Source: a virus (taxonomy: Duplodnaviria > Caudoviricetes). From it: a stretch of 54,495 nt of DNA. Under the pieces are notes generated by a model. It had not been told where the DNA came from, did no database searches, and was given only the letters and a program-made list of their open reading frames with translations. Position 1 is the first letter of the stretch, and the number at the start of each line of letters is the position of its first letter. Below, piece by piece: positions 125-33,343 of the stretch. The position numbers were made by a program, and so were the translations under genes. Location of the stretch: the IMG/VR virus record IMGVR_UViG_3300002091_000037, positions 1-54,495 of that record. One strand, 5' to 3'.

Positions 125-215
125 AAGACAAAGCCCCATTTCTGGGGCTTGTCCATCTTCTAGGGAAAAATAGAAATGTATCAACTATGGCAAATAGCAT
201 CTACACAATTATTTA
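125..215. repeat. Unit-boundary conserved sequence, copy 1
   Basis: Nearly identical (few substitutions and indels) to 33344-33434; the sequences upstream of the two copies are unrelated. Confidence 0.9.
127..153. terminator. Probable intrinsic terminator hairpin, possibly bidirectional
   Basis: GACAAAGCCCCA-TTTC-TGGGGCTTGTC stem-loop downstream of the 213..533(-) gene; conserved at 33346-33374. Confidence 0.6.
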
Positions 216-533
216 GTCCGAGACTGAGGTAAGGATGTTACTTGATACCGAATCACGCAGAGCCTGCAGTCTGGCTTCTGTGGCCAGGCGCTCCTGCTCC
301 TCGCGATGTGCCTGCAGTTGAACTTCTTGCACCAACTCCAAATACTCAGGGCTGAACTGCCCGTCTCTGATCCAGCCCATGTGCACCAGATGCACATACT
401 TCATGATGTCTTCTTCTGTGACACCAGCCTGCTCCATGAGCAACACAGCAGTTTCAAAGGCATGCATTACACTCAATTTGGGTTTTGATAAAAATTTATT
501 GTCCTCGGGTCTATGTCGTACTGTTCTTGTCAT
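213..533 (-). CDS. Conserved hypothetical protein, 106 aa
   Basis: Homologue at 33432..33740 shares VMHAFETAVLLMEQ...HMGWIRDGQF; AAGGA RBS upstream. Confidence 0.8.
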   Translation of the reverse strand: MTRTVRHRPEDNKFLSKPKLSVMHAFETAVLLMEQAGVTEEDIMKYVHLVHMGWIRDGQFSPEYLELVQEVQLQAHREEQERLATEARLQALRDSVSSNILTSVSD

Positions 534-559
534 AATAATTCCTTAGGGTTAGACTCATG

Positions 560-569
560 TAAATATTTA
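560..569. promoter_or_regulatory. Palindromic TAAATATTTA: candidate bidirectional late-type promoter
   Basis: Reads TAAATA on both strands between divergent genes; conserved at 33767-33776. Confidence 0.5.
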
Positions 570-908
570 ATGCTTTACACAATCTACAGAGTACTTTACC
601 CAGGACTGGAACAGGTCAATCAATACTACAAATGGAAACATGAATTTCCCGAGACCAATTATGTCAAGGAGAATCGCGCTGGACCACCTCGCAAGATACG
701 TGGTAATACCCAGTGTCCTGGATGTGGGCGCACACTGAGTTACAATCAAATATATGCAGACGTACACAAGTGTCCAGGAACACTCACAGACCATCCAGTA
801 AAACCACGTGGGCATCGACCCGGCAGACCCAGTAAAAGTGAACTGGCTCAAAAATGGATTGAGTATGTGCAGGAGAATGATCACCCCATAACCTTTGGTG
901 AAGATTAA
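570..908 (+). CDS. Putative zinc-finger DNA-binding protein
   Basis: CPGCG...HKC motif plus basic RPGRP segment; start moved to ATG 570 by alignment with homologue 33782..34135. Confidence 0.7.
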   Translation: MLYTIYRVLYPGLEQVNQYYKWKHEFPETNYVKENRAGPPRKIRGNTQCPGCGRTLSYNQIYADVHKCPGTLTDHPVKPRGHRPGRPSKSELAQKWIEYVQENDHPITFGED

Positions 909-924
909 TTGGCTAAATTGTGTG

Positions 925-953
925 TTGACACTAAATAAACAAATCAGTATAAT
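925..953 (+). promoter_or_regulatory. Perfect sigma70 consensus promoter with TAAATA in the spacer
   Basis: TTGACA (925-930), 17 nt, TATAAT (948-953); TAAATA at 932-937. Confidence 0.85.
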
Positions 954-1044
954 ATTATTATACTGAAAGGACGTGTATGGAAATGATGTGGTTAATAACG
1001 GGCCTGTTTGTGGCACTTGCCCTAGACATATGGAGGCAAGCACG

Positions 1045-1410
1045 ATGAAATGGATCATGGCTTTAATTTTAAGCACCTGTGGCATAGTACAGGCAGCAAC
1101 TTGGTATACCTATGCACGTGACGAGGATGGTGGCTTTCATGACTACGAACACAGCATGATCACACATCATGAAGATGCTGGCAAGGTGTTGGTGGTATGG
1201 GCGCGAACACGTCCCTTTATTGACACACCCAAGACCAGCAAGTATGAACTGCATTGCCCCAGTCGCAGTTATAGAGTAACACACTCAATCCGAGTCACAC
1301 GCACTGGAGATGTTTATCAAATTGAAAACCCACAAGGCAAATGGCTATATGCTGTTCCAGACAGTGTAGAGATGGTGTTGATAGAACATTGTTGTGCAAA
1401 TTATCAATAA
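1045..1410 (+). CDS. Secreted/periplasmic protein with signal peptide (cargo gene; surface-adhesin-E-like by resemblance only)
   Basis: GGAGG RBS at 1032-1036; N-terminus MKWIMALILSTCGIVQAA looks like a Sec signal; absent from unit B. Confidence 0.65.
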   Translation: MKWIMALILSTCGIVQAATWYTYARDEDGGFHDYEHSMITHHEDAGKVLVVWARTRPFIDTPKTSKYELHCPSRSYRVTHSIRVTRTGDVYQIENPQGKWLYAVPDSVEMVLIEHCCANYQ

Positions 1411-1417
1411 ATAAAAT

Positions 1418-1780
1418 ATGAACTTGAAAACCAATCAAAACACCAATGGACACGGCGGAGCCAGACCCGGAGCCGGGAGACCCAAAGGTTCAACGCCCAA
1501 AATTCGCGTTGAAGATCTTTTGGACCAAATTGAAATGGCCACAGGCAAGAGCTATGCCGAAGTACTGGCTTGGAACTATGCCGGAGCCATAACACGCAGT
1601 GACTGGAGTCAAGTCAGCATATATGACCGTGCGTTTCTAAACAAGATAGTTGCAGACAAAACAGAAGTAGAGATCATTGGCAATGATGAAATGGTAGAAC
1701 TGCGTCAAGCGGCCTTTGCAGAAGCCATTAATCAATTGAATCAGGCTGCAAGAACTCGCCCAGACAACGACACTAAATAA
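1418..1780 (+). CDS. terS: Probable terminase small subunit
   Basis: GGARPGAGRPKGS N-terminal motif common in TerS-like proteins; first gene of the late cluster; homologue 34509..34856. Confidence 0.6.
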   Translation: MNLKTNQNTNGHGGARPGAGRPKGSTPKIRVEDLLDQIEMATGKSYAEVLAWNYAGAITRSDWSQVSIYDRAFLNKIVADKTEVEIIGNDEMVELRQAAFAEAINQLNQAARTRPDNDTK

Positions 1781-1802
1781 TATTAAAGGATTCTGTACAA
1801 CT

Positions 1803-2078
1803 ATGCCACTAATCAAATCAACTTCAGCAAAGGCGTTTGGCGAGAACATTGCTCGGGAGCGTGCCGCTGGTCGGCCAGAGAAGCAGGCTGTGGCCATTGC
1901 CTATAGTGAGCAACGTGCAGCCGCTAAGAGTGAGCATCACAGCACACACAGCCAAAAACGTAGTGAGCACTATCATAGTCGGGTAGCAGGTACCAGCATC
2001 CAACGTGGCTCCAACAAGATGACACAAGCCAAGAGCCAATTAAAGAATCATTCCGAGAACATGGGAGAAGAGTTTTAA
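1803..2078 (+). CDS. Small basic phage protein (KQAVAIAYS motif)
   Basis: Homologue 36508..36810; AAGGA RBS and upstream TAAATA (1774-1779). Confidence 0.75.
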   Translation: MPLIKSTSAKAFGENIARERAAGRPEKQAVAIAYSEQRAAAKSEHHSTHSQKRSEHYHSRVAGTSIQRGSNKMTQAKSQLKNHSENMGEEF

Positions 2079-2224
2079 TGGCCACCAAAGGTGTTCGTAA
2101 ACTTAATCCTACTCGTATGATTATGAGTCCAAGTAGCCTGGCCGCTCGTCGTGCCGTTACTGAGAATGTCGCCAGTTTTAAAAAGGTCAAGCCGCCTAAG
2201 GCTACGAAAAGGAAAACAAAATGA
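2078..2224 (+). CDS. Small Lys-rich protein, 48 aa (not in ORF track)
   Basis: TAATG and ATGA overlaps with neighbours; C-terminus FKKVKPPKATK shared with 36803..36967. Confidence 0.65.
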   Translation: MATKGVRKLNPTRMIMSPSSLAARRAVTENVASFKKVKPPKATKRKTK

Positions 2225-2523
2225 AAACAACAGCGAGCAATTTAGATTTTGACGGCATGGCCGGAGACGGCGTTAACCGCGCTCAGAACCGTTATGCACA
2301 CAATCAATGGAGCGGCCATTCAAATGATGGACGTGACGTCAACATGGGCCTCATGCAGAGCCAAAGACGAGGCAATGCAAGTTCAAGTCCAAAAGATGTT
2401 GGACCCTCAGCAACACGTGACAAACGTCAGTTGACCATTGCCACAGCCAGTCAAGGCGTTAACATTGGTAGCGGCTTCCACTGCCCTTCATATGGCAATC
2501 CCGACAAGATCAACGTAGGATAA
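2221..2523 (+). CDS. Conserved hypothetical protein, 100 aa
   Basis: Homologue 36964..37266. Confidence 0.8.
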   Translation: MKTTASNLDFDGMAGDGVNRAQNRYAHNQWSGHSNDGRDVNMGLMQSQRRGNASSSPKDVGPSATRDKRQLTIATASQGVNIGSGFHCPSYGNPDKINVG

Positions 2524-2527
2524 ACTC

Positions 2528-2872
2528 ATGGCATTCATCGCACAAGGCAACGCTGTTGCAATCTCAGCAGGACCAACAGTTACAGTGGCCAACATCGCCA
2601 CCAATGGTAATGCATTTAGAATACTAAATGCCAATGCAACTGCTTACAGTTATGTGGGCGTGTTCAATGACTACAACACAGCACTGACCCTGAATGACCC
2701 ATCAATTGGAGATGCAGGCGGCGGCTATGGAACCATTATGGCACCCAACTGGCCCGAGGTCATTGCCGGCAACTTTGGTGTGCAACCAAGTCCACAAACA
2801 GTTTATGTTGCTGTAATTACGTCAGGTGCAACAGGTGTTGTAACAGTGATCCAACCAGGACGCGAAGCATAA
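2528..2872 (+). CDS. Hypothetical beta-rich protein, possibly virion decoration
   Basis: Divergent homologue 37271..37630 shares YVGVFNDY and GNFG. Confidence 0.7.
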   Translation: MAFIAQGNAVAISAGPTVTVANIATNGNAFRILNANATAYSYVGVFNDYNTALTLNDPSIGDAGGGYGTIMAPNWPEVIAGNFGVQPSPQTVYVAVITSGATGVVTVIQPGREA

Positions 2873-2905
2873 CATGAGCATCAGTTCAGATATAAGGAGC
2901 ACTCA

Positions 2906-3100
2906 ATGAAAGACGCAATGAAACGACATGGCAAGTGGATACAGGCAGCCATTGGTAAGCCTGGAGCACTGCATCGCGAATTGGGTGTGCCAGCTGGAGA
3001 GAAGATACCTGCAAAGAAGTTGGCACGGGCTGCTAAGGCACCTGGCAAGTTGGGACAACGTGCCCGCCTTGCTGAAACACTAAAAGGATTTAAAAAATGA
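2906..3100 (+). CDS. Small basic phage protein (KWIQAAIGKPGALH type)
   Basis: AAGGAG RBS; near-identical homologue 37639..37833. Confidence 0.8.
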   Translation: MKDAMKRHGKWIQAAIGKPGALHRELGVPAGEKIPAKKLARAAKAPGKLGQRARLAETLKGFKK

Positions 3101-3387
3101 TAACCGCACAAGCAAAGAAATCAGTAAAGATTGCAAAGGAAACTGCATCAAGTTGGTCATGTGAGAACCAGTATCACAAAGACAATGTCAACGTTGCAAT
3201 GGGACCACGCACGGGTAACAGAGGCACTCCCTCAAAGCGCAGTGACTTTGTTGCAGCCAAAGCCGAACGTGAACCTTTAGCAGCCAGCATACTAACGGCA
3301 TATGGTGCAAGAGCACAAGACGACTATGTGAATCCCAAATTGGAAAGCATTCGTTCAACAGTTAAGCCACACAAGTTTAGCCGTTAA
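3097..3387 (+). CDS. Conserved hypothetical protein
   Basis: ATGA overlap; homologue 37830..38156. Confidence 0.75.
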   Translation: MITAQAKKSVKIAKETASSWSCENQYHKDNVNVAMGPRTGNRGTPSKRSDFVAAKAEREPLAASILTAYGARAQDDYVNPKLESIRSTVKPHKFSR

Positions 3388-3484
3388 CTTACCCCATTCA
3401 CAGCGGGGCCACCAGCACTGTGACGAGTTCGAAAACAAGTGTTTTGGTTTTCTGGTGGCACATTTTATTTTATAAGGAACAGAA

Positions 3485-4291
3485 ATGAAAAAGACAGACA
3501 AGAAGCCCGCCAATGACGCATGGGACTTGGATCCCGAAACTGGCGACACAGTTGCCATGACACCAGAAGTAGAAGAGGCTGTAATTCCAACGACTCTCAC
3601 CCGGCCTGAACCCGAGTCTAAGAAACCTATCATAATTGAGTTTGACATGGAAGGTCTGATGACAGACTTTCCCAATGCCACCGAACTGCAAAAGTTTGTG
3701 TATGACCAAACAGGCATTGTGTTGAACCTTAAAGGTCGTGCCAACAAGTTAAAGTATCAGATTGCCATGGACACACTCAATGGTGTCATACCCGATGAAG
3801 CATACTTGGGCGCTGAGAATCCTTATCTGGACAAGAGTGAACTCATCCCCACAGAGCCTTTAAAAGAATTGCCACCGCGTGATCCCATAATTGATGCCGC
3901 AGGACCTGAAGTCACACGCTTCTCAACTAACCAATTCCCACATCCGGACCCAGATTGGCGTGCGCAGGATCAAAAATGTCAAGTCATATTCCGCAAGTAT
4001 GCCAATAACTTGATCACGTATGAAGTGCTGGGTCCTATTGCACAGCGTGCCCTAGGCACAAAGATCAACAAGTTTGGACAAAAGCAACCTGAACGCATTG
4101 TGTGGATTGACTGCAGAACTGGTGAACAGATTATTCGCAATGACCGTGGCCAACTTACTCCATTAGGCACTCGCCTTAAGAGTTTCATGTCACGCATGAA
4201 GGTCAACAAATCAAATCAATGGGACGTGTGGATTGATCGCGACTTTGTGCTTGCTGGTGATCTAGTTAGTGATAACCCTTGGGGTGAATAA
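3485..4291 (+). CDS. Conserved hypothetical protein, 268 aa
   Basis: AAGGA RBS; highly similar homologue 38246..39046. Confidence 0.85.
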   Translation: MKKTDKKPANDAWDLDPETGDTVAMTPEVEEAVIPTTLTRPEPESKKPIIIEFDMEGLMTDFPNATELQKFVYDQTGIVLNLKGRANKLKYQIAMDTLNGVIPDEAYLGAENPYLDKSELIPTEPLKELPPRDPIIDAAGPEVTRFSTNQFPHPDPDWRAQDQKCQVIFRKYANNLITYEVLGPIAQRALGTKINKFGQKQPERIVWIDCRTGEQIIRNDRGQLTPLGTRLKSFMSRMKVNKSNQWDVWIDRDFVLAGDLVSDNPWGE

Positions 4292-4572: not shown

Positions 4573-6195
4573 ATGCTTGATCCCAGTGTGTTAATGCGTC
4601 GTGCCATACGTTACGTATGTGACCAACATGACCTTGCGGTCAATAACCTACATCACTTGCCTAGTGTGCAAAAAGCCGCACTACAGGAATTGGTTATAGA
4701 AATCGCAGATGACATGCGCTATAATCAATTACGATACTTTAGACCATTTGAACATCAGAAGCGTTTCTTTACAACTGGCAACAGTCAACGTCGTGGTATA
4801 CTTGCTGCCAATCGAATTGGTAAGACGGTATCCACCTGCTTTGAGACTGCAATTCATCTCACTGGTCTATATCCGGATTGGTGGGAGGGCAAACGATTTG
4901 ACAAGCCAGTGACTGCAATGGTAGCAGGCGAGGGCTGGAGTCAAGTTGCACTGGTATTGCAAAATGAACTCTTGGGCACAAACGATGTTAAAATTCGGGA
5001 CAACCTAGGCACTGGTGCCATACCACGTGACTCGATAGTATTTGATACCATGCGCGGAGATGGTGCCAACTGTATTGGTGTTGAAATACGACACACAAGC
5101 GGCACCAACAGTTATTTGTTGTTTGCCAACTATACTCAAGAAGTGCGTCAGATGCAGGGTTTCAAACTTAACCTGGCCATCTTTGACGAACAGCCACCTG
5201 ACGATTTCTTCTCAGAGATAGTTACGCGAACTGCAACTACACAAGGACAAGTGCTGTGTAGTTTCACACCGCTTAAAGGACTTAACGGACTAGTAAGTAA
5301 ATTTTGGAATCATGAGGATGGATATGAACATATACGAGTATCTTGGGATGACGTGCCAGAATATGATCCCTGGGGCGAACCATTTTTGCTTAATGAGACA
5401 CGACGTCAATTGGAGCGTGACTACTTGCCTCATGAGCGTGACGCTCGTCGTAATGGCGTGCCTGTTATGGGCAAGGGAGCAGTATTTCAAATCCGAAATT
5501 GGCCCACATACAAGACGGGTGATTATGACCTGCGTAACACTACTGGTATTAGGCGTATTATTGCTTTGGACTTGGGACTGGTAAACGACAAGACTGTGGT
5601 GTCATTGATGTATTGGCATCCCGACGAACAGGAAGCATGGTTGCACACACAGATCATTGTCAAGGGCGTTGAAGAAGCCAATCCCATGAACTATATCAAT
5701 CATCTCATGCGTCCCGAAGTGTTTGGCACGCCCATTGTGTTGCCAGCTGATGCTAGTAGTCAAGGACGTTATACAATGTCAAGCCAATCAATTAGAGAAC
5801 TGTTTGAAGAATACGAACTCAATGTCATTGGCGAGCCCATAATGAATCCACCAGATGATCAAGGACGCAGAACCAACCATAAAAGTTATGGTGTCAACGT
5901 CATGCGTCAGATGTTGGAGATTGGCACACTACACGTCAACGAAAACTGTGTGGAGTTCTTACGTGAAGCACAGAACTACTTTGTTGATGAGCGAGGTCGC
6001 TTCTCAGATCCCGATGACTGCATTGACTCTGCACGTTATGCACTGCTAGGATGTTTAAATGGTCTAGCAGAACCCTGGGACGGACGCAGTCCACAACAGC
6101 GTATGCGTGACTTTAGACATCAAGTTCGAGCACGGCAATGGAATCAAGCACAGTCATTGCCCAGTTGGAAACAGAGCCATAACCCACAGGGCTGA
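4573..6195 (+). CDS. terL: Terminase large subunit, P22-like
   Basis: Walker A AANRIGKT, Walker B IFDEQPP, coupling motif FTP, RNase H-like nuclease motifs ALDLG...DDCIDSARY. Confidence 0.95.
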   Translation: MLDPSVLMRRAIRYVCDQHDLAVNNLHHLPSVQKAALQELVIEIADDMRYNQLRYFRPFEHQKRFFTTGNSQRRGILAANRIGKTVSTCFETAIHLTGLYPDWWEGKRFDKPVTAMVAGEGWSQVALVLQNELLGTNDVKIRDNLGTGAIPRDSIVFDTMRGDGANCIGVEIRHTSGTNSYLLFANYTQEVRQMQGFKLNLAIFDEQPPDDFFSEIVTRTATTQGQVLCSFTPLKGLNGLVSKFWNHEDGYEHIRVSWDDVPEYDPWGEPFLLNETRRQLERDYLPHERDARRNGVPVMGKGAVFQIRNWPTYKTGDYDLRNTTGIRRIIALDLGLVNDKTVVSLMYWHPDEQEAWLHTQIIVKGVEEANPMNYINHLMRPEVFGTPIVLPADASSQGRYTMSSQSIRELFEEYELNVIGEPIMNPPDDQGRRTNHKSYGVNVMRQMLEIGTLHVNENCVEFLREAQNYFVDERGRFSDPDDCIDSARYALLGCLNGLAEPWDGRSPQQRMRDFRHQVRARQWNQAQSLPSWKQSHNPQG

Positions 6196-6234
6196 AACAC
6201 ACTAAATAATAGATAATATGATAGGATCCCATCC

Positions 6235-8508: not shown

Positions 8509-8538
8509 TATAAATAAAATTAATAGATTGGAATTGAT

Positions 8539-8886
8539 ATGATTAACGAAGACGTGTTCGAGGCGTTTAATAACCGCCTGGTCAGTGCTACCGAACTCAG
8601 TAAACTTACACCAGCAGCCGCTGATAGAGTCAAACAGTTGGGCAGTGCCGCAGAGAACTTATTGAAAAATAGGGACTTTGTGTTGTTTGTGCGACAGTTC
8701 CAACTAGAGAATATGGATTATCTAGTAGAAGTTACGGGACACACAGCGGAAGACAACCAAAAGCGTATAGCGTTTGCAAATCATTTCAATGCAATGGACA
8801 CATTTATCAACTTGTTGAAAAGACAGGTTGTATTGAAAAACCGTGTGGTAACTCTACAAGAGAAATCTCAAGAGCCCAACACATAA
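8539..8886 (+). CDS. Conserved hypothetical protein between portal and scaffold
   Basis: Homologue 43800..44147; upstream TATAAATA at 8509-8516. Confidence 0.8.
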   Translation: MINEDVFEAFNNRLVSATELSKLTPAAADRVKQLGSAAENLLKNRDFVLFVRQFQLENMDYLVEVTGHTAEDNQKRIAFANHFNAMDTFINLLKRQVVLKNRVVTLQEKSQEPNT

Positions 8887-8898
8887 GAAAGGTAAAGT

Positions 8899-13517: not shown

Positions 13518-13529
13518 GGAACAAATAAA

Positions 13530-24910: not shown

Positions 24911-24917
24911 GGATTAA

Positions 24918-27185
24918 ATGATGGCATATGATTTAATGGATTTAGCCAGCAGATATGGACAACGTCGTTTAGATCAAGCGACACAGCCATTCACGGATCC
25001 TGAAGCATATCTGAACAACAGATTGCAACAAAACTTTGGTGTAGACATGAATGGTAATACTACACCTGTCAGCACAACTATCAAATACAACACTGATACT
25101 GGCGCTCCAGAAACTGTAACAACCAAACACGAAGTTGGCACACCTGATTATTCAGCTGGTGCAACTTATACATTGCCTAGTCCGCAAGCACAACCTATGG
25201 GCTTACAAATGCCTGTAGCACAACCTGTTGGAATGCAAATGCCACAGACCATGCCTGCCGCACAACCAGCACCTGTTGCTGTTCCTGATGCACAGGCCAT
25301 TGATGAACAACGTCGCAGACAACTAGAACAAGCACAATTAGCACAGGTTCAGGCTCAACAAGCACAACAAATGGCTCCTGCTCCTGCTGGACCAGCAGTG
25401 CCCACAGTGGAACGTGAAGTAGCACAACCTCCTGCACAACCAGTTGTTACTGCACCAGTAACACCACAAGCAGTTGCACAACAAGCTGCACCAGCATTAC
25501 CTGCACAAGCAGCAGTTAATCAAGTTACGGCCACACAATTACCACAATTTGGTCCAGGAGTTCAAGTAGCTGGTGGACCACCAGGCGCAGGCGTATCACA
25601 AGCGGCACAAGTTGCAGCACCTGCAGTTGCAGCAGCACCTGCACCTGCAACATGGCAAACTGATTTAACTGCTATACAAAATGATCCTACTAAATTAGCG
25701 GCTTATGTTGGCAATGAAGCCAACCCAGAAAATGCACGTAAAATTGCTGGCACTTTATGGCGCAAGCAAGAAGACTTACGTGCTAAAGGACTTGATATTG
25801 AAAAACTATTTGTTGATGCCAGCAATGGTGATGTCAAAGCTGTTAATACACTAGCAAATGATTTAAAGAAACGCACCGAAGAAGGCAGTTTGTTAAAGGC
25901 TTATTTTTATAATCGATTAGGTCTTACAGATTTGGCCAAAGAAGAACAAATGAAGATTCGTGGCGGTGGCGTTACCAGTGAAATGATGGGCGGTCAATTT
26001 TACACTGTTGAAAAGAACAGTAAAGGTGAAGTCGTTCGTGCATGGAACAGTGATGGTGCTGCACTTAATCGCGATAAAATTGCACAGTTACAATCATCTG
26101 GTCAAAAGACTGGCACACATGCATTTAGCACAACTGGTGGAGTATACACTATTCCCGAAGGTGAACCAGATGCTGGTCAAGAATATGCTAGACGTTTTAG
26201 TGCTCAAACAGGTCAATTTGAAAATGTAATTACAAGTGGACCAAATGCCAACAATCCATATCTTGGCAAGCCTGGATATGAGAAGCGTGTTGAAACCAAC
26301 GCCGCTGTTAAACTTAATAGTGCATACGTTGACTTCCAAACTAAACCAACTATTGCAATGGCTACAACCATGTTGGAATTGGCTGGTAAAGCAGACACAG
26401 GTGATGGCAAGACAATTAATAATGCCATGGCAGAAATACAACGTCGTAGTCCAACAATCTTTAATCAAATACAGCCAATGGCTCCGGCTATCACTGGTAG
26501 AACTCCAGCAGAAGCAGCACAACCAGCACCGAATGCAGCTACAGTTACACGCCCAACAACAGGTGCAGTATCACCACAACAGGTGCAAGCACAGGCAGCT
26601 CCTGCAGTAACACCTACGGCAGGCGGTGGTGGAGGTTCATTGACTCAAAAGATAACACAACAAGAAGAATCGATTAAAACTGCTGAAATGGCCAAACGTG
26701 AAGAGCAAAAACCACCAGCAGAAGCCAAAGGTAATATCAAAGCCAATGATATCAATAACCAAAACCAGGCCAATGAATATCATGGTCTAATGCGACCAAT
26801 TAGTGATCTTATTAAGAAATCTACAGGATCTAAAGTTGGGGCTACAATTGATAGTGCATTATCAGCATTTGGTGCTACAACACCAGGTGGAGAAGCTATT
26901 GCTGAATTAAATCAATATTCAGGATACTTGCAAAAGAATGTGCCTAAATTTAAGGGTAGTGACAGTGACCGAGATGTTAAAATTTATCAAATGTTGGCTG
27001 GTAATTTTAATGATGCAGAACAACCAATCAAATACAGAATGGCTGCGCTTAAAGGTATGATTCAGTTATTGAAGAAATATGACAAAGAAGGTGTTAATGA
27101 TTGGACCTTTGGTGGTGCCGGACAACCTGGTGGAACCAGCGATGTTCGTAACCGTGCAGATGCAATTATTGGTGGAGGCAGATAA
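24918..27185 (+). CDS. Probable DNA ejection protein, 755 aa
   Basis: Position; Pro/Gln/Ala-rich linkers with helical domains. Confidence 0.6.
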   Translation: MMAYDLMDLASRYGQRRLDQATQPFTDPEAYLNNRLQQNFGVDMNGNTTPVSTTIKYNTDTGAPETVTTKHEVGTPDYSAGATYTLPSPQAQPMGLQMPVAQPVGMQMPQTMPAAQPAPVAVPDAQAIDEQRRRQLEQAQLAQVQAQQAQQMAPAPAGPAVPTVEREVAQPPAQPVVTAPVTPQAVAQQAAPALPAQAAVNQVTATQLPQFGPGVQVAGGPPGAGVSQAAQVAAPAVAAAPAPATWQTDLTAIQNDPTKLAAYVGNEANPENARKIAGTLWRKQEDLRAKGLDIEKLFVDASNGDVKAVNTLANDLKKRTEEGSLLKAYFYNRLGLTDLAKEEQMKIRGGGVTSEMMGGQFYTVEKNSKGEVVRAWNSDGAALNRDKIAQLQSSGQKTGTHAFSTTGGVYTIPEGEPDAGQEYARRFSAQTGQFENVITSGPNANNPYLGKPGYEKRVETNAAVKLNSAYVDFQTKPTIAMATTMLELAGKADTGDGKTINNAMAEIQRRSPTIFNQIQPMAPAITGRTPAEAAQPAPNAATVTRPTTGAVSPQQVQAQAAPAVTPTAGGGGGSLTQKITQQEESIKTAEMAKREEQKPPAEAKGNIKANDINNQNQANEYHGLMRPISDLIKKSTGSKVGATIDSALSAFGATTPGGEAIAELNQYSGYLQKNVPKFKGSDSDRDVKIYQMLAGNFNDAEQPIKYRMAALKGMIQLLKKYDKEGVNDWTFGGAGQPGGTSDVRNRADAIIGGGR

Positions 27186-28018
27186 TGGCCAAGGCAGATG
27201 ATTACGCAAAGTGGATTGTTGATAACCAAGACAAAAAAGGCACAGAAGATTTTAATACTGTGGTGCAAGCCTATCAAGAAGCCAAAGCAGAAGAGGCTGG
27301 CGCTGCTACCACTAGTAATGATATAACTACTGCACCTCCTGAAGGAACAGAGAATGTTGCAACTTACGCTGCACAGTCTGCAGTCCCTTTGACCGTAGGG
27401 GGGCCAAACTTGATGAATGCTCCAGTTCAAGTAGGTGGCGCCGCAGTAGAAGCAGGTGGTCCTTTGGCCCGAACTGCTGTAGAAGTAGCCAAAGATGTTC
27501 CTGCTTGGGTCAAACCATTAAGTAATTTATCTGTTGGTGAAACATTAAAGTATGTTGGACAACATGGATTAACCAAATCGGCCGCAGATCTTGCAGGAGC
27601 TATTTTACATCCATTGCGTGATGTCAGTATAGGAACTGCAGCCAAAGCAGCAGGCACTGGTATTGTGCAAGGTGTTATGGCTCCAGAAAACTTAATGACA
27701 TTGCCATACAACATGGCGGCATACGAACAAGCAAAAATTCGTGCCAACCCCACTGCACCAGAATATGCCAGTAATCCATACGCTATGACTGTGCGTGGCG
27801 AAGCACCAACACAAGCAGCCGCAGGCGCAATTAACCAACGTCTAGCCTTAATGGGACAAAAATATGGTGGCATTACTCCAGAACAACAACAAATCCTACA
27901 ACAGGATCGTCAACGTCAACAAGCACAAATAGTATTAAAACAACCAGCAAGCACACAAAACTATATGCAACGTATGAGAGCATTAAGCGAATTATATGCA
28001 CCAATCACACCACAATAA
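27185..28018 (+). CDS. Probable DNA ejection/internal virion protein
   Basis: TAATG coupling; Ala/Gly-rich; last of the cluster. Confidence 0.55.
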   Translation: MAKADDYAKWIVDNQDKKGTEDFNTVVQAYQEAKAEEAGAATTSNDITTAPPEGTENVATYAAQSAVPLTVGGPNLMNAPVQVGGAAVEAGGPLARTAVEVAKDVPAWVKPLSNLSVGETLKYVGQHGLTKSAADLAGAILHPLRDVSIGTAAKAAGTGIVQGVMAPENLMTLPYNMAAYEQAKIRANPTAPEYASNPYAMTVRGEAPTQAAAGAINQRLALMGQKYGGITPEQQQILQQDRQRQQAQIVLKQPASTQNYMQRMRALSELYAPITPQ

Positions 28019-28027
28019 GGAATTGAA

Positions 28028-28516
28028 ATGAAAGAAAACTTAAAACATTTACATACTGTATTAGAAGAAACATTTGCTGCAAACTTTGTTAGTTATTACA
28101 GAGCACATGTTGCACACGTCAACTTAATCGGTAGCGATTTCCCAGCCCGACACAAATTATTACAAAAAGTTTATGAATACCTACAGGATAACATAGACAC
28201 CCTGGGAGAAAAACTACGCACTACTAGAGCATTTATGCCCCGTAGTCTACAGACTGTAGTTGGTGTTAGTCCCATTATGGATTATGATGTTACGGGTGAT
28301 CAAGATCAATTATTGGAAACAGTTGATGAAGATCTAGAAGCACTCATTGATCAATACCATGCATTGTATGAGGCAGCAGAAGCAGTCAACTACATTGACA
28401 TTAGTAATTTTGCCCAGGATCAAGTAGGCATATTGGCCAAACATCGTTGGATGTTAGAATCTACACTAGGTAAAAATCAAGAAGAAGCTGACGAAGATGA
28501 AGACAGCATCTACTAA
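28028..28516 (+). CDS. dps: Dps / ferritin-like DNA-protection protein
   Basis: HVNLIGSDFPARHKLLQKVYE...DTLGEKLR matches the Dps HW/NxxG.F..HxxxE...DxxAER pattern; C-terminal KHRWML. Confidence 0.85.
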   Translation: MKENLKHLHTVLEETFAANFVSYYRAHVAHVNLIGSDFPARHKLLQKVYEYLQDNIDTLGEKLRTTRAFMPRSLQTVVGVSPIMDYDVTGDQDQLLETVDEDLEALIDQYHALYEAAEAVNYIDISNFAQDQVGILAKHRWMLESTLGKNQEEADEDEDSIY

Positions 28517-28664
28517 TGTAGTGCCTTTGCATTCACTTGAAGAACATCTAAGTGAATGTGAAACAAGGTATCAATCTGTAATCAACAAACTCGATACCTT
28601 GGATACACGTATGTCACGTGTAGAACAGTTACTGCTGGAAATTAAGCAGGCTGTAAAACGTTAA
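28497..28664 (+). CDS. Small coiled-coil protein, 55 aa (not in ORF track)
   Basis: MKTASTNVVPLHSLEEHLSECETRYQSVINKLDTLDTRMSRVEQLLLEIKQAVKR fills the gap and has a heptad pattern. Confidence 0.55.
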   Translation: MKTASTNVVPLHSLEEHLSECETRYQSVINKLDTLDTRMSRVEQLLLEIKQAVKR

Positions 28665-28990
28665 AGATTAGCGTCGTAAAAGCGTCGAACATGGCTCATA
28701 AAGGCGTCTTTACTAAAGGTTCCGCCTTCAATTCGTGTGCCTTCTGAGTCGAGTATATACAGCTCTACTCTATCTGTATATTGATCATCAATTACTATTT
28801 CTATATTGCCTACATCTAAGGCAACAACTGGTGTAGCATCAATACTGCCTTTATGTTCTACTTTGTAACGCATTTCTTGTTCTCCTTGTGTTAACCATTC
28901 TACGAATTGTTTATTGGCTTGTTCATTGTCCCATTCAGCACGTTGCCGTGCCGCGGCCTCTTTAATCTTGCCAAGCGAAGATGGTGTCAT
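28661..28990 (-). CDS. Hypothetical protein (start uncertain: ATG 28990, or in-frame ATG 28873 with AAGGAG RBS)
   Basis: Last gene of the minus-strand operon. Confidence 0.6.
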   Translation of the reverse strand: MTPSSLGKIKEAAARQRAEWDNEQANKQFVEWLTQGEQEMRYKVEHKGSIDATPVVALDVGNIEIVIDDQYTDRVELYILDSEGTRIEGGTFSKDAFMSHVRRFYDANL

Positions 28991-29669
28991 TTGTAATCTC
29001 CACTGCTTGGTATCCAGACTTAATAAATCTATCAATTAATTTTTGTCTGTTGAATTGCAAGTTGCCAGGCCAAGCTGTTTGTTCCCTGTTAGTTTGATGC
29101 ACTTCTACGAACCAACGGTCAATTTTTTTAACTACTGGATCTAACAGTAGTTCAGTAATGGCAGACATTTCACCACCTTCAATATCACATTTGACAAAGT
29201 CCACATGTGACAAATTGTTTTCTTTTAAGATAGTCTCTATGGTTTTTGCGTCAACAGAGATCTGTTGTCCATTTTGATTTACAGACACACTATTGATAGT
29301 GGGATTGTCATGTATGTAAAAATCAATAACACCATCATGGTCACTGAGTGCCGCAGGTATAATGGTTATTTTATCATTGTCTTGACACATTACTCGTAAT
29401 ACTGCCAATGTTGCAGGTGTAGGTTCAATGGCATAGACATGTTTAGCACTGTCTTGTGCATATAAACTAAACAATCCAATATTGGCACCAAAGTCCAATA
29501 TTACAAAGTCTTCTTTGTCTGCTAACACAGCATCATATAACCGTTCTGAGTTAATTTGATTTAAAATAAATTCTACTTGTGTTTCCTGTGTGCGGGCAAA
29601 CCATTGTGCAATCAAAGGATTGCCTAGGTCAATATCAATGGCACGTTGTTTACTGGTTATGATTTTCAT
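28962..29669 (-). CDS. FkbM-family SAM-dependent methyltransferase
   Basis: ILDFGANIGLFS, YAIEP and DFVKCDIEGGE motifs. Confidence 0.9.
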   Translation of the reverse strand: MKIITSKQRAIDIDLGNPLIAQWFARTQETQVEFILNQINSERLYDAVLADKEDFVILDFGANIGLFSLYAQDSAKHVYAIEPTPATLAVLRVMCQDNDKITIIPAALSDHDGVIDFYIHDNPTINSVSVNQNGQQISVDAKTIETILKENNLSHVDFVKCDIEGGEMSAITELLLDPVVKKIDRWFVEVHQTNREQTAWPGNLQFNRQKLIDRFIKSGYQAVEITNDTIFAWQD

Positions 29670-29935
29670 TATCTTATTATGGCATTAATGTTATTTTGGT
29701 CAACAATGTAGTATTTTTGACCAGCATGTTCAATCAAGCCCACGCTTTGCCAGTTTACGCTAATGGCATCACCAACTTGCAATCCTTCAATATCTACTTT
29801 TTCACCAATGCTGGTGACGTAGCCCAGGGGATTGGATTCTGTTTCGGGATTACTTAAAATAATACCACTGTCTGTTTGCTTTTGAACTTCCCGACGTGTG
29901 AATAAGACTCTGGTCTTTACTGCTTGTATACTCAT
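29669..29935 (-). CDS. groES: Co-chaperonin GroES (Cpn10)-like protein
   Basis: 88 aa; mobile loop QTDSGIIL, GYVTSIG, VGD motifs. Confidence 0.8.
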   Translation of the reverse strand: MSIQAVKTRVLFTRREVQKQTDSGIILSNPETESNPLGYVTSIGEKVDIEGLQVGDAISVNWQSVGLIEHAGQKYYIVDQNNINAIIR

Positions 29936-30270
29936 GCTATCTCCTTGTATTTTAGTATGAAGTGTGTGGCTTCTGGTGTGTCACCATAGGCATGCTTTGC
30001 GAAATCTATAACATCCATTGCAACACCATTCCACATCCACATTTGTCGTTGTGGTTGTTGTGAATTTAATAAATTGGCATATTGTTGTGCTGATATTGCT
30101 TGGCTCATGCCCTGTTGTGCATATTGGTTATAGGCTTGATTAAATTGTTGTGCGGCCGACTGACTCAACTGTCCGAGATTCATGCCTTGTGTTTGATTTT
30201 GGGCTTGTTGGTATTGTTGTGCTGCTTGTTGTGAAAATGTTATGCCCTGTAATAGTGGATTATATGCCAT
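29932..30270 (-). CDS. Gln-rich hypothetical protein
   Basis: Coupled by overlaps within the operon; low-complexity Gln tract. Confidence 0.6.
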   Translation of the reverse strand: MAYNPLLQGITFSQQAAQQYQQAQNQTQGMNLGQLSQSAAQQFNQAYNQYAQQGMSQAISAQQYANLLNSQQPQRQMWMWNGVAMDVIDFAKHAYGDTPEATHFILKYKEIA

Positions 30271-30800
30271 TACAAATCCTCCCCGATGCGTCGAATGGCC
30301 AACAGACCCACACGTTGAAATCCAAATATATCATGTAAACGCATGAATGCCTCTTGCTCGGCTCTTATACTGCTGCTGACTAAAACTGGTATCCCATGTA
30401 AGTGTGCCCATAGAATCCATGTCTGCAGCATTTGTGCTAGTATACGTATTCTTGTGCGTGTGGGCAATGATAAATCCACGTGTGCAATAGCTGCTTCTGC
30501 CATTTCTTCTGTGCTGTAGGGTGTATATTGTCCACGCTTGCACCAAGCATAACCCATAAGTGCATTGGTGGTTCGGTGTCGTGCAACAATAACCTGTTCA
30601 CGACTTAATTGATATTTTTGTTCGTTTATGGCCTGCTTTAGGCTGTATGTGTATGCAGCAGGACTGGGTGTTAGCAATCCTGCTAGTTCACGTTGGTATT
30701 CAGCAACTGCCATTGTGACCATTTCTGGTATGTCTTCGTATTCGGCAAGTCGCCATGACCAAGTGTCAGACTCTTTTGGTAAAAATTTATCAGTTGTCAT
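30270..30800 (-). CDS. Putative GNAT-fold acetyltransferase
   Basis: WRLAEYEDIPEM N-terminus and FMRLHDIFGF C-terminus resemble GNAT; minus-strand TAAATA at 30820-30825. Confidence 0.55.
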   Translation of the reverse strand: MTTDKFLPKESDTWSWRLAEYEDIPEMVTMAVAEYQRELAGLLTPSPAAYTYSLKQAINEQKYQLSREQVIVARHRTTNALMGYAWCKRGQYTPYSTEEMAEAAIAHVDLSLPTRTRIRILAQMLQTWILWAHLHGIPVLVSSSIRAEQEAFMRLHDIFGFQRVGLLAIRRIGEDL

Positions 30801-30875
30801 TTCAATTCCTGTGTATTTTTATTTAGCCTTTGTGCTATAATATAAATATTATACGTATTTAGTAAAGGAAATGCA

Positions 30876-31406
30876 ATGGCAAGAGATTTAAGCAGATATA
30901 CACGTTTGGGCAACTACCTATTTGATCAAAACAAGTTTTTGGACTACTGTGATGAACAGCCAGATGGATGTATCCTTTTTCGGGGAGGTCGGCACAGGCA
31001 AGGTTATGGCATGTGTTCAGGCATCAGAGTGCATGACGACAAACGCATCATGCAAGTGGCACATCGTGTATCAATGATGTTCAAATTAAATCGCGAACTC
31101 AAGCGCGAAGAAAATGTAATACATTTGTGTAGCAATAATCTCTGCGTAAACCCAAAACATTTGTTAGTTGGTGACACTTACAAGCGCAGTGAAATAATGG
31201 TAGCCAAAGGACACACATGGCATCACCACAAAAAGAATTTGGAACCACGCAAACAGTTGGGACGCAATTACAAATGGACCGAAGAAGAAATACAGTTTGC
31301 ACGTGCCAATGATTCAAAGACAGTGGCAGCACGTTTTGGTATCACACGTGAACAAGCCAGCAAAATGAAATATGAATGCAAAAACTTATATAAGTGGCTG
31401 GACTGA
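30876..31406 (+). CDS. HNH endonuclease
   Basis: GYG...AHRVS...VIHLCSNNLCVNPKHL His-Me finger; C-terminal HTH-like segment; TATAAATA at 30841-30848. Confidence 0.85.
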   Translation: MARDLSRYTRLGNYLFDQNKFLDYCDEQPDGCILFRGGRHRQGYGMCSGIRVHDDKRIMQVAHRVSMMFKLNRELKREENVIHLCSNNLCVNPKHLLVGDTYKRSEIMVAKGHTWHHHKKNLEPRKQLGRNYKWTEEEIQFARANDSKTVAARFGITREQASKMKYECKNLYKWLD

Positions 31407-31633
31407 TTTGGGCCTGCAGTGGAAACCAGAAAAAATTACTCTGCGCCATCCTCAGATGTCTGGTTAACTCCAGCCAAATTATTTACTCTAAATACTTTAC
31501 AAGAGGTATTTTGCAAGTTATACTAAATACTTAACGCAGGTGATAAAACAATCTACGCAATGTAGAGAGTTGTTTGGCCAGGACACATCTTATTCCGAAT
31601 GTGGCGAAATCGGAATTCCTAAACAAACAACTT

Positions 31634-32071
31634 ATGAAAATAGATTTATACAACAACACTGAAACATTTTTTAAAGAGTCTCGACAAGATTCTAATGTTA
31701 ACCAATGGCTTCGAAGCAAAGGCATTGACATTAAAGATTTACAGGGACATGATCAAATTAGTGATGTAATCACATTGATCAATATCAAAGACTATCTTTG
31801 GCATAGAATGAATCCCATTGAGCAGGTGACATGGCATGCTTATTGGGATATAGTTTATCGTAAAGGATATCCACTTAATCAAAAGTTTTGGAAAAAGTTT
31901 AACACAATTGTTATGGCAATAGATCAACGCGAACACATTATGGCACAACGTAGACAACAAATTAGAACCCTTAAAAACAAGGATCAAAATAATCAGGCTA
32001 AAGGATCCGACCAGCCCCAAGTAACTTATACGAAAAGGGATGAACTGGGGTGCCGTGCGGTGTCGAACTAA
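31634..32071 (+). CDS. Hypothetical protein whose 3' end overlaps a structured region
   Basis: ORF with ATG at 31634; no recognisable motif. Confidence 0.6.
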   Translation: MKIDLYNNTETFFKESRQDSNVNQWLRSKGIDIKDLQGHDQISDVITLINIKDYLWHRMNPIEQVTWHAYWDIVYRKGYPLNQKFWKKFNTIVMAIDQREHIMAQRRQQIRTLKNKDQNNQAKGSDQPQVTYTKRDELGCRAVSN

Positions 32072-32255
32072 GTTCGGCGGGGAGTAGGAGATAGCCAAAG
32101 GTCTCCCCAATAATTACCGTGTATAAGTAACCTCGCTGAAAGGCCGCCTCTTATGGGGACGATGGATGTTCAGTTGGAGTTAGTGGAACGACTAGATGTA
32201 ATTTCTCTTTTTTTAAGAACTTTACATTTAGCCGTGCCTTGACTCCAGCTGGATG
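32010..32255 (+). ncRNA. Candidate structured RNA or single-stranded origin element
   Basis: 32167-32183 pairs with 32239-32255 over 17 consecutive positions including 7 G-U pairs, with an inner stem; further stems at 32061-32079 and 32024-32032/32120-32128. Confidence 0.45.
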
Positions 32256-32281
32256 ATAGTTTAAATTATTAATTGATCAAT

Positions 32282-32358
32282 TGCTGATATAAAAATTACA
32301 TGTGATCAAGTGAAACGGATCACATGTTTTATATCTAGCACATCTGCGTAGCAGATGT
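32282..32358. repeat. Two adjacent inverted repeats
   Basis: Long imperfect IR 32282-32340 (core ACATGTGATC/GATCACATGT) and ACATCTGC-GTA-GCAGATGT (32340-32358). Confidence 0.8.
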
Positions 32359-32390
32359 TTTATTACCACTAGCACCTGAAAGGAAATGAC

Positions 32391-32711
32391 ATGCGTTTAT
32401 GTGAAGTAATTGAAGAACTAAATCTTGATAATGACTCAAGTGATTACGTAATTAATAATATCATAAGACTTTATACTGATAGAGATATGATAGAATTAAG
32501 TAATCAATTCCTTAAAGGACTAGATCGAAATCATCGAGTTCCCGGTGCGGTAATTGATACATTATGGGGTATATGTCAATGGTATCATGAGAGACATGAG
32601 TCCTGTCCATTTGATATATTAACTCCGAAACAGAAGTTTTACATATTGGGTAATACCATTAAGTATTGGTCAAATATATCAGCACAAACTCGTGCAAACC
32701 TAATGATTTGA
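32391..32711 (+). CDS. Hypothetical protein
   Basis: AAGGA RBS; no recognisable motif. Confidence 0.65.
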   Translation: MRLCEVIEELNLDNDSSDYVINNIIRLYTDRDMIELSNQFLKGLDRNHRVPGAVIDTLWGICQWYHERHESCPFDILTPKQKFYILGNTIKYWSNISAQTRANLMI

Positions 32712-32736
32712 CAGTATTTGTATAAATAACTATAAT
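32708..32736 (+). promoter_or_regulatory. Perfect sigma70 consensus promoter with TATAAATA in the spacer
   Basis: TTGACA (32708-32713), 17 nt, TATAAT (32731-32736); TATAAATA at 32721-32728. Confidence 0.85.
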
Positions 32737-32756
32737 ACGTATATAGGAGAAATCGA

Positions 32757-33137
32757 ATGACATACCAATACATATTAGTTGACATAGCAGAACAAAACAG
32801 TCGACTCAATGGTGGCGAGTTCTATAGATTAACTTGGGTTTGCATGGACGACATGACCCGTTGGGAAACTGATGTGCAGGACAACTATAGAAACTACCTT
32901 AGGAATGGTTGGCGTAGCATAGTGCATCAAAAGTTATGGGGTGTATATGAAGGACTAACACGCAGTAGTAGAAACACTACCAGAAACATAGGTGTCATAA
33001 CTGCAGACTCACGGCCAGTTTGTGTTATACCAATTAACAGACAAGATACCGCAATTGAAGTTGTGCTATTGGAACAAGAACGCATTGCTAATGCACAACG
33101 CAATCAACTGTTTGATCAAGTGTTTGTGAGTGTATGA
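32757..33137 (+). CDS. Hypothetical early protein
   Basis: AGGAG RBS behind a consensus promoter. Confidence 0.75.
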   Translation: MTYQYILVDIAEQNSRLNGGEFYRLTWVCMDDMTRWETDVQDNYRNYLRNGWRSIVHQKLWGVYEGLTRSSRNTTRNIGVITADSRPVCVIPINRQDTAIEVVLLEQERIANAQRNQLFDQVFVSV

Positions 33138-33343
33138 AACACTACAGCATCAGTTGGCAATCAATACGCACCAATAGACATTTGGAACAGTTGTTGATGC
33201 CTTATCTAGAGCACAACAGTCATTACCAATTGGTGCAAATGACCCCAGATCGTGGTGCACGAACACACTGGCATTTACACATACCCCAAACAGATGCCAA
33301 CATAGAGTTTGTTATATTGTCAGCACCGGGCACTTGGGTATAA
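33134..33343 (+). CDS. Hypothetical protein, 69 aa
   Basis: ATGA overlap; stop codon abuts the boundary repeat/terminator. Confidence 0.65.
   Translation: MKHYSISWQSIRTNRHLEQLLMPYLEHNSHYQLVQMTPDRGARTHWHLHIPQTDANIEFVILSAPGTWV

Follow-up and report, generated by a model that had tools for sequence, protein, structure and literature searches.

A family of freshwater podoviruses with a complete virion module, few recognisable non-structural genes and T4-like TAAATA boxes at operon starts

How can a tailed phage that carries a complete set of virion genes, and no recognisable gene for replication, lysis, integration or a sigma factor, express and propagate its genome? This question was raised by the IMG/VR virus record IMGVR_UViG_3300002091_000037 (Duplodnaviria; Caudoviricetes), a linear record of 54,495 bp that was analysed at its whole length and is hereinafter referred to as the window. 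An original prediction had regarded one genome-length unit of it as a candidate satellite of a large T4-like phage, which would build its own virion and borrow late transcription, replication and lysis from that helper. We found the same gene-content gaps in six complete relatives, and a short element, TAAATA, at operon starts throughout the family. The reading favoured here, at a probability of about 0.55, is an autonomous, host-dependent podovirus, which would possess an unrecognised promoter-specificity factor of its own.

The window comprises two parts, the ends of the first being set by the points where homology with the second begins:

125-33343: copy 1, one genome-length unit of 33,219 bp, colinear with six circularly assembled relatives of 35.0-36.7 kb
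33344-54495: copy 2, partial genome of a related strain, ending inside its own fibre gene; 73-81% nucleotide identity to copy 1, with extra genes

A complete virion module was identified in copy 1, as the original prediction had claimed, with TerL, portal, capsid, tail and ejection-type genes assigned by Pfam and PHROGs:

1418-1780, +: 120-aa core protein with an N-terminal GGARPGAGRPKG motif
1803-3387, +: run of small conserved proteins (91, 48, 100, 114, 64 and 96 aa), mostly basic or Gly/Ala-rich
3485-4291, +: 268-aa core protein upstream of the terminase, in 10/10 relatives
4573-6195, +: large terminase subunit (TerL; phrog_2, E 1e-24), matched by 418 phage records
6235-8508, +: portal (phrog_1216, E 2e-26)
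8539-11428, +: 115-aa protein, 388-aa putative scaffold and major capsid protein (MCP; 10097-11428, phrog_1328, E 4e-25)
11448-11825, -: HNH/homing endonuclease inserted after the capsid gene (phrog_16521, phrog_655)
11917-21259, +: tail module, with 206-aa and 326-aa virion proteins, a 1159-aa repeat-rich fibre, a Gly-rich protein, a 549-aa virion protein, a 436-aa protein and a tail-fibre assembly protein
21275-28018, +: putative ejection/internal virion proteins (965, 236, 755 and 277 aa)

The module is of podovirus type, but the P22 label given to it earlier proved loose. The nearest cultured relatives of TerL were those of LUZ24-like Pseudomonas and VPp1-like Vibrio podoviruses (~33% identity), the portal and capsid PHROG matches were generic, and the sole link to P22 was a weak, sub-threshold Atlas lead (0.82) from the 277-aa protein to gp16. 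The tail module was assigned from phrog_2941, phrog_2295, phrog_3287, tail-fibre assembly PHROGs, Gly_rich_2 and the fibre repeats, whereas the putative scaffold and the ejection proteins were assigned from position, the latter following the tail genes. An SLT (transglycosylase) domain was found at approximately residues 135-240 in the orthologues of the 755-aa protein of 3/10 records, and the peptidoglycan-hydrolase domain of this internal protein of ~800 aa is swapped or lost among relatives. Hydrophobic segments among the ejection-type proteins were confined to the 965-aa protein.

Pfam and PHROGs detected no DNA polymerase, primase, helicase, single-stranded DNA-binding protein (SSB), recombinase, integrase, repressor or helix-turn-helix (HTH) protein, sigma factor, holin or endolysin among the open reading frames (ORFs) of copy 1, in agreement with the original prediction; six ORFs (2078-2224, 2906-3100, 8539-8886, 28497-28664, 28661-29035 on the minus strand and 33134-33343) were scanned in one library only. 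All gene-content negatives reported here refer to sequence-level detection with hidden Markov models (HMMs) and phmmer. The finding extended to the six complete relatives, which together with the window make up the seven genomes compared, and whose genes were called by simple ORF and conservation criteria. In these relatives, 147 of 163 listed non-structural ORFs were scanned; the 16 dropped were orthologues of Dps, His-Me endonuclease, GroES and methyltransferase, and seven more at the cut points were unlisted. Pfam returned only superoxide dismutase (SOD; 2), group-1 glycosyltransferase (2), GroES (2), GNAT (1) and one weak viral capsid match, and PHROGs only glycosyltransferase, GroES, one family labelled 'ferredoxin' and families of unknown function. 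In the structural region, 51 of 61 listed ORFs were scanned, the ten dropped being duplicate orthologues of two tail proteins (fibres and three cut-point ORFs had been excluded beforehand), and yielded hexapeptide repeats, tail chaperone, Gly-rich, SLT (2), NUMOD3, VanY (M15-type; 1) and a few weak matches. No replication, recombination, regulator, sigma, holin or stand-alone endolysin family was found by Pfam or PHROGs in these 147 and 51 ORFs. An integrase or Rep was likewise not found by these libraries in the window or the six relatives, and the proposed check for a replication initiator, a lysin or an own late activator gave no initiator, stand-alone lysin or gp55-type activator at HMM level in the same set. 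Because six complete circular relatives have the same gaps, the family as a whole appears stripped down, and on this comparison the bareness is a family trait, not peculiar to the window contig.

The genes outside the virion module were as follows:

213-533, -: 106-aa acidic helical core protein, with a homologue in 7/7 genomes and no Pfam or PHROG match
28028-28516, +: Dps/ferritin-like core protein (PF00210, E 1e-12; phrog_3636), in 6/6 relatives
28661-30800, -: leftward operon encoding a 124-aa protein, FkbM methyltransferase, GroES, a Q-rich 112-aa protein and a GNAT-like 176-aa protein
30876-31406, +: His-Me finger/HNH endonuclease core gene (phrog_1872, E 8e-16; PF05551), in 6/6 relatives
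31574-33343, +: variable early-type ORFs (165, 106, 126 and 69 aa) with no family matches
36171-36521, +: endonuclease VII-like protein (PF02945, E 9e-8), copy 2 only
39034-39552, +: Fe/Mn superoxide dismutase (PF02777, PF00081), copy 2 only

The non-structural ORFs of copy 1 were all under 240 aa, as had been stated, the largest being the FkbM methyltransferase (235 aa). The earlier Dps and GroES calls were real by Pfam and PHROGs, and the SOD named with them is encoded in copy 2, outside 125-33343. The GNAT assignment of the 176-aa protein is weak, and was made from an alignment and a PDB profile match to phosphinothricin acetyltransferase (E 0.0066).

The original prediction had also drawn attention to T4-late-like TAAATA boxes at gene boundaries. 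In the whole window their number was at chance level (TATAAATA, 3 found vs 2.45 expected; TAAATA, 39 vs 38.8), but they were concentrated upstream of genes, positionally conserved and matched the T4 consensus. CTAAATA occurred 15 times in the window against 7.2 expected, a count reached in 1/100 shuffles. In the seven genomes, 7-mers containing TAAATA were approximately 21-fold enriched in plus-strand intergenic DNA and rivalled Shine-Dalgarno words, and TAAATA was present within the non-coding 60 nt upstream of 74/331 called genes, compared with 6-31 genes for each of 14 other A4T2 hexamers. The consensus from 78 sites was (A/C)TAAATA(A/C) followed by A/T-rich sequence, with nothing conserved upstream and no conserved -35 box. 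Presence of the box per gene, counted among distinct relatives, was as follows:

115-aa gene: 64/64 relatives; in the window at 8511-8516, +, as full TATAAATA
Portal gene: 52/61 relatives; in the window at 6203-6208, +, 26 nt upstream
91-aa gene: 38/40 relatives
206-aa gene: 31/53 relatives, median gap to ATG 5 nt; in the window at 11907-11912, +, 4 nt before the start codon
120-aa gene: 20/34 relatives, median gap to ATG 5 nt
MCP gene: 5/56 relatives
Scaffold gene: 2/60 relatives
268-aa gene: 2/65 relatives
100-aa gene: 1/44 relatives
TerL gene: 0/71 relatives
93-aa gene: 0/67 relatives
96-aa gene: 0/58 relatives
326-aa gene: 0/52 relatives
560-569 in the window: palindromic TAAATATTTA, a box on each strand, in the 36 nt between divergent genes

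Since the box is common before particular genes and nearly absent before genes inside operons, it marks operon starts. Its distance to the ATG clustered at 4-5 nt or, with a Shine-Dalgarno site between, at 19-30 nt, and its strand was that of the downstream gene, the leftward operon included. In copy 2, the site equivalent to TAAATATTTA is a perfect palindrome (33765-33778), and the paired boxes are the only conserved element in those 36 nt. Genes outside the virion module, among them the His-Me endonuclease gene and those of the leftward operon, also had boxes before them, and boxes often overlapped or directly followed the stop codon of the upstream gene. From this placement, the (A/C)TAAATA boxes are interpreted as putative promoters. 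As a separate observation, read by eye, at 24173-24199 the box before the 236/240-aa gene was followed in 4/7 genomes by an ATG 3-4 nt on, which opens a mini-ORF of 6-8 codons with a stop overlapping the real start (ATGA); the other three genomes had ATAG at the position of the mini-ORF ATG.

T4 late promoters are described as a -10-like element without a -35 box, from which gp55 alone gives basal transcription and which gp33 and the clamp gp45 activate (PMC7892883). Late promoters of cyanomyoviruses are given as NATAAATA (PMC2984593), and Aeromonas phage Aeh1 has CTAAATA beginning at -12 (PMC1524935). The boxes share with these promoters an identical TAAATA core, an AT-only element at the -10 position, the lack of a -35 and a location before many virion-gene operons, and the same two upstream positions vary among T4-like phages and in the podovirus family. 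The resemblance to T4-family late promoters is real. In RB49, S-PM2 and Syn9, some genes are reported to carry both an early and a late promoter (PMC2984593), and in the podovirus family some boxes overlap sigma-70 promoters. On the other hand, T4-type phages are myoviruses of 160 kb or more, whereas the podovirus genomes are of ~35 kb, have no detected gp55 or gp45 and carry boxes also before non-virion genes. In the cited papers, T4-type late-promoter logic is described only for T4-related phages (PMC7892883, PMC2984593, PMC1524935). If the boxes are promoters, this logic would extend to small podoviruses without gp55, which would have to possess a specificity factor for RNA polymerase of a new class or else pirate the factor of a helper.

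Host-type promoters were identified as well. The window contained three 12/12 sigma-70 promoters (TTGACA-N17-TATAAT), of which the third lies at 34132-34160, and one extended -10 promoter:

925-953, +: sigma-70-type promoter, TTGACA-N17-TATAAT, with CTAAATA in the spacer at 931-937
32708-32736: perfect sigma-70 promoter within the variable early-type ORF region (31574-33343)
30801-30875: divergent control region, with an extended -10 (TGCTATAAT, 30833-30841) and TAAATA (30843-30848) on the + strand and two CTAAATA boxes (30820-30826 and 30856-30862) on the - strand

Several of the sigma-70-type promoters had a TAAATA box inside or beside them, and at three of them the box lay inside the spacer. 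No promoter scoring above 10 of 12 was found for the leftward operon or several long rightward units in the scan, which covered 28000-40000 only. The -10 hexamers of sigma-70-type promoters were embedded in palindromes (944-966, 30836-30853; e.g., TCAGTATAATA/TATTATACTGA), which could be operators that shut off early transcription.

Relatives of the capsid protein were encoded on 535 IMG/VR stretches. The 268-aa protein had 294 relatives in IMG/VR and 1294 clusters in a large protein collection, all 'hypothetical', the longest contigs being of ~36-37.8 kb at most among 120 listed. Its gene was present in 10/10 examined relatives of ~35-37 kb, 6/10 of which had direct terminal repeats of assembly type (99-127 bp). 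The lengths of the six circular relatives were obtained after removal of the overlap repeats, and their G+C content was 41-46%. The family thus comprises widespread, uncultured freshwater podoviruses with circular maps of ~33-37 kb; no published description of it was found in literature searches.

The nearest GenBank genome was that of a circular, metagenomic podovirus of 41.8 kb, Caudoviricetes sp. ctfne034 (MW202484), the sole match of the capsid protein in a tblastn search against 50,697 phage records (58% identity), and its TerL was 51% identical. This sister phage encodes Erf, SSB, Cro, an HTH protein, RusA and a membrane protein followed by a chitinase-type lysin, none of which had a phmmer homologue in ~15,000 ORFs from 173 family loci and the window. 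In contrast, its GNAT, 268-aa and 93-aa homologues and most of its virion genes did have homologues in the family. Further, no TAAATA boxes were found between its virion genes. Because the early and lysis genes of MW202484 lack family homologues while its virion genes have them, the family resembles a lineage whose lambdoid early-and-lysis region of ~14 kb was replaced by ~6-9 kb of small ORFs.

Two relatives carried accessory genes akin to those of cyanophages. The glycosyltransferase of G001 shared 50% identity across 98% of its length with the enzyme of Synechococcus myovirus ACG-2014f, and 51/51 of its phage matches were Synechococcus phages. A 211-aa protein encoded beside the terminase in G004 had 50-55% identity with a gene of T4-like cyanomyoviruses that is annotated as PurM or ferredoxin, and matched 114 records (67 Synechococcus, 16 Prochlorococcus and 14 'Cyanophage'). 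In addition, the sole phage match of Dps was Synechococcus phage S-EIVl. Since these three proteins match cyanophage genes, a shared gene pool is suggested, and the host is perhaps a cyanobacterium. The comparison of fibre and GroES with T4-like phages, which had been proposed as a check, gave no similarity to any of them. Relatives in GTDB were limited to two contigs of metagenome-assembled genomes (MAGs), labelled Actinomycetota (3.2 kb) and Dechloromonas (22 kb, sister clade). The MAG labels for contigs of the family and sister clade (L098, L099; protein P0047) were Actinomycetota, Dechloromonas and Methanosarcina; as these disagree with one another, they are probably binning artefacts rather than host evidence. 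Host placement through homologues of SOD and Dps yielded no organism.

If the phage is autonomous, the following course of infection would account for these features. Non-structural genes would have been cut to a minimum, and the phage, which is probably virulent, would depend on the replisome and RNA polymerase of its host. Transcription would begin at a few consensus sigma-70 promoters, and most operons would then start from the family-specific (A/C)TAAATA, placed at the -10 location without a -35. With T4-type geometry, transcription would start 5-6 nt downstream of the box, so that some genes would be leaderless and others would start just ahead of the Shine-Dalgarno site; by the Aeh1 numbering, which puts the last A at -6, a gap of 5 nt to the ATG would place the start on the start codon, and the class of 19-30 nt would give short leaders. 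The element would be recognised by a specificity factor, most likely one of the phage's own conserved small proteins that is too divergent to recognise. Phages usually encode promoter-specificity factors of their own, and these are often unrecognisable by sequence. Autonomy is favoured because a full virion and ejection module is present, with SLT in 3/10 records and VanY in one relative, and because host-management genes (GroES, Dps, SOD, GNAT, methyltransferase and glycosyltransferase) are carried. It is also favoured by the consensus host sigma-70 promoters, by the abundance and high diversity of the family, by the lack of integrase or maintenance genes for awaiting a helper, and by the existence of cultured autonomous podoviruses of similar size that are likewise described without polymerases (PMC8477408).

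Several points weigh against autonomy with a factor of the phage's own. The gene content is unusually bare even for uncultured phages, a hydrophobicity scan gave no conserved small membrane protein in the family, and the window's own 755-aa protein (24918-27185) has a P/Q/A-rich low-complexity linker where the SLT domain would be. The consensus of the boxes is the late-promoter consensus of T4-type phages that encode gp55, and six-frame searches for gp55 (phrog_234 and phrog_12791, ids taken from T4 gp55 itself) gave no match at E <= 10 in 5 records each, 8 distinct records overall. Moreover, the analysis pointed to no protein that could be the proposed specificity factor, lambdoid early and lysis genes have been retained in the sister phage MW202484, which has no motif, and in phages of HTVC010P type an exonuclease, a DnaA domain and an M15 peptidase can still be recognised (PMC8477408). 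T4 gp55, gp45, gp44, gp62, RegA, RpbA, gp46 and gp47 likewise had no phmmer match in ~15,000 ORFs, gp33 not being searched for; a very divergent gp55 analogue may nevertheless be encoded in the family.

Three other explanations were weighed, and a small remainder of the probability was given to no reading. That the boxes are not promoters at all, but sites for a phage regulator or nucleoid protein or signals for RNA processing or translation, with transcription from the few sigma-70 promoters only, is considered unlikely. Their operator-like position in the spacer of three sigma-70 promoters, their frequent contact with the upstream stop codon and the failure to find a specificity factor would all fit such a role; however, the box always has the orientation of the downstream gene, even in the palindromic pair, which lies between divergent genes and so where a transcript from upstream would not be expected, 4-5 nt before the ATG leaves too little room for a ribosome-binding signal, and the leftward operon and several long rightward units had no consensus-quality sigma-70 promoter within 28000-40000. 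The original prediction of a satellite, in the form of a satellite virus of a T4-like myovirus, perhaps a T4-like cyanophage, is judged somewhat less likely again. The phage would have discarded its lambdoid early, replication and lysis genes and placed T4-type late promoters before its operons, so that a helper would express it with gp55, gp33 and gp45, and probably copy and release it too. The gene-content basis of this prediction, the T4-like motif and the cyanophage-like accessory genes in two relatives stand in its favour: replication, recombination, regulator and lysis-cassette genes were undetected in 7 complete genomes, neither a gp55 nor a gp45 homologue is encoded, and the loss of lambdoid genes together with the gain of boxes, which the autonomous-looking sister MW202484 lacks, fits a switch to a gp55-bearing helper. 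Satellites with capsids of their own and without replication genes also have a precedent (PMC10690885). Every piece of this case is circumstantial, however. Gene sharing between phages of one host is common and implies no helper, convergence could account for the match of a 6-7-nt AT-only motif to the T4 consensus, and the fibre and GroES are unlike those of any T4-like phage. The full infection toolkit, with perfect sigma-70 promoters and host-management genes, fits a phage that runs its own infection, and without integrase or plasmid-maintenance genes a satellite would need simultaneous co-infection in dilute plankton. The family is also of great abundance and diversity, as four freshwater runs gave contig depths of 50-360x and 1294 protein clusters were counted. 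Helper dependence is accordingly given a low probability.

It is very improbable that one of the large virion-module proteins is instead a divergent replication or transcription enzyme, such as a virion-delivered RNA polymerase that reads the boxes and makes the phage self-sufficient. Virion RNA polymerases of other phage groups are known to escape sequence searches, and the 965-, 755-, 436- and 277-aa proteins had no Pfam match; the 755- and 277-aa proteins also had no PDB match in profile and sequence searches (E 0.7 or worse, or none). Nevertheless, the position of these proteins, their A/Q/P-rich low-complexity segments, their hydrophobic segments and the swapped SLT and VanY domains fit ejection proteins, and within the family the 965-aa and 277-aa proteins show poor conservation, unlike a polymerase that reads a conserved promoter.

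The arrangement was compared with other known systems. The Streptomyces satellite phages MulchRoom and MiniFlayer, described in 2023, encode encapsidation machinery and lack key replication genes, one of them being without an integration module (deCarvalho et al. 2023, PMC10690885), so that the 'reverse logic' put forward in the original prediction is not without precedent. The window and its six relatives resemble them in having their own encapsidation machinery and no detected replication family. For those satellites, however, helper dependence was shown experimentally and the hosts are Actinomycetota, whereas the podovirus family is known from sequence alone and would infect a freshwater bacterium. 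HTVC010P-type pelagiphages are cultured podoviruses of ~31-40 kb, which are described as lacking DNA and RNA polymerases and as having a GNAT gene and early/late layout, and some of which have integrases (Du et al. 2021, PMC8477408). The window and its relatives share with them the similar size, the absence of a detected DNA or RNA polymerase and the GNAT gene, weakly assigned in the window, but Pfam reported no exonuclease, DnaA domain or M15 peptidase in the window or relatives, save VanY in 1/51 structural-region ORFs, and the tblastn search of the 50,697 phage records detected no capsid similarity to them. Classical satellites (P4, PICI, cf-PICI, PLE and PICMI) are integrated, encode an integrase and their own replication initiator, and take some or all virion parts from a helper. 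The family would share with them a possible helper dependence; it differs in its complete virion module, in the lack of a detected integrase or Rep and in contigs of no more than ~38 kb among 120 listed. In lakes the family is both abundant and diverse, and it provides a natural test of how small a set of non-structural genes suffices for a tailed phage. Proof of helper dependence would make it the first satellite virus of T4-like phages and, in plankton, the bacterial equivalent of virophages, and the reading of viral abundance and host mortality from metagenomes would be affected.

The structure of the record itself bears on its use. Self-comparison showed that the two copies are colinear and that the offset between them drifts from 33,219 to 35,258 bp, owing to the extra genes in copy 2; with their limited identity, the 33,219 bp reported earlier is not the period of a repeat. 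No homology was found between bases 1-124 and 33220-33343. The stretch 28500-38000 was present in five freshwater metagenome runs, and Logan contigs from four of them were placed on 26000-42000. Contig depth in the four runs was ~65, 240, 180 and 56 at 26.0-33.4 kb, ~98, 345, 250 and 72 at 34.4-36.9 kb and ~23, 77, 67 and 23 at 38-41 kb, and thus varied approximately four-fold along the window in three levels with similar ratios across runs. The interval 33373-34419 was bridged by none of the contig pieces listed, which were the longest ones (396 more lay beyond them). Many loose ends and alternative joints were located at 32745, 33344, 34380 and 34416, and common joint variants lacked either 31539-32703 (in three runs at greater depth than the path of the window itself) or 32746-33343. 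The early region is a mosaic across co-existing strains. Because the copies are only 73-81% identical, their offset drifts and contig depths differ, the record is a chimeric concatemer, or walk round the assembly graph of related strains, and comprises ~1.6 genomes from two or more strains. This is a caution for database users, as CheckV rated the record 100% complete.

Searches for further signals gave no tRNA genes and no Rfam matches in the window, and no sign of a replication origin (DnaA boxes, 23 vs 18.5 expected; iterons, none found). The small ORFs of copy 1 were all free of hydrophobic segments. No conserved RNA structure was found ahead of the 268-aa/93-aa/TerL unit; just upstream of the 268-aa gene, relatives have in common an A/T-rich block (...ATTTTATAAGGAA) and no TAAATA box. 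The interval 3388-3484, which separates the 96-aa gene from the 268-aa gene, contains a hairpin and then a T-run (GCCACCAG...CTGGTGGC ACATTTTATTTT) and looks like an intrinsic terminator. A second candidate, likely a bidirectional terminator, was read from the letters between convergent units and is repeated in copy 2, where the terminator scan lists it:

133-148: GC-rich hairpin GCCCC-ATTTCT-GGGGC, repeated at 33352-33367

The 268-aa protein had no PDB match and no usable Atlas match; since it is common to MW202484 and adjoins the terminase, a role in packaging or in the head is more likely for it than one in replication initiation. The 120-aa protein, represented by a 35-sequence alignment, had a weak PHROG match to small terminase subunit (E 0.0014) and is possibly that subunit or another DNA-binding protein; its profile gave nothing convincing against the PDB, the best being one chain at E 0.044, and longer relatives of it were dropped as their match was confined to the Gly/Arg-rich motif. 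The small proteins at 1803-3387, conserved in 4-7 of 7 genomes and the first of them matching phrog_2423, are probably virion-associated.

Homologues of the HNH/homing endonuclease were found in 2/7 genomes; in G003 they follow both TerL and the capsid gene, and in G009 the capsid gene. Because related endonuclease genes occupy varying positions in relatives, mobile homing elements are suggested. The 112-aa protein of the leftward operon (29932-30270, minus strand) is extremely Gln-rich and carries little charge in its first ~75 residues, and its C-terminal domain is short and conserved. It and the 176-aa protein had been considered as gp33 and gp55 analogues by their similar sizes and were rejected, the latter aligning as a GNAT-like acetyltransferase. 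In the window, G001 and G003 the 106-aa gene runs opposite to its neighbours, whereas in G004, G007, G009 and G010 it has their orientation. The fibre had no GenBank phage relative besides a 59-aa C-terminal match. The fibre genes of both copies (13530-17009 and 48090-54494) contain a ~46-nt unit, encoding a Y-x-N-x-N-V-A-A-Y-L-type peptide, in 12 copies in all, plus longer internal repeats, and the fibre ORF of copy 2, within which the contig ends, exceeds 2135 aa.

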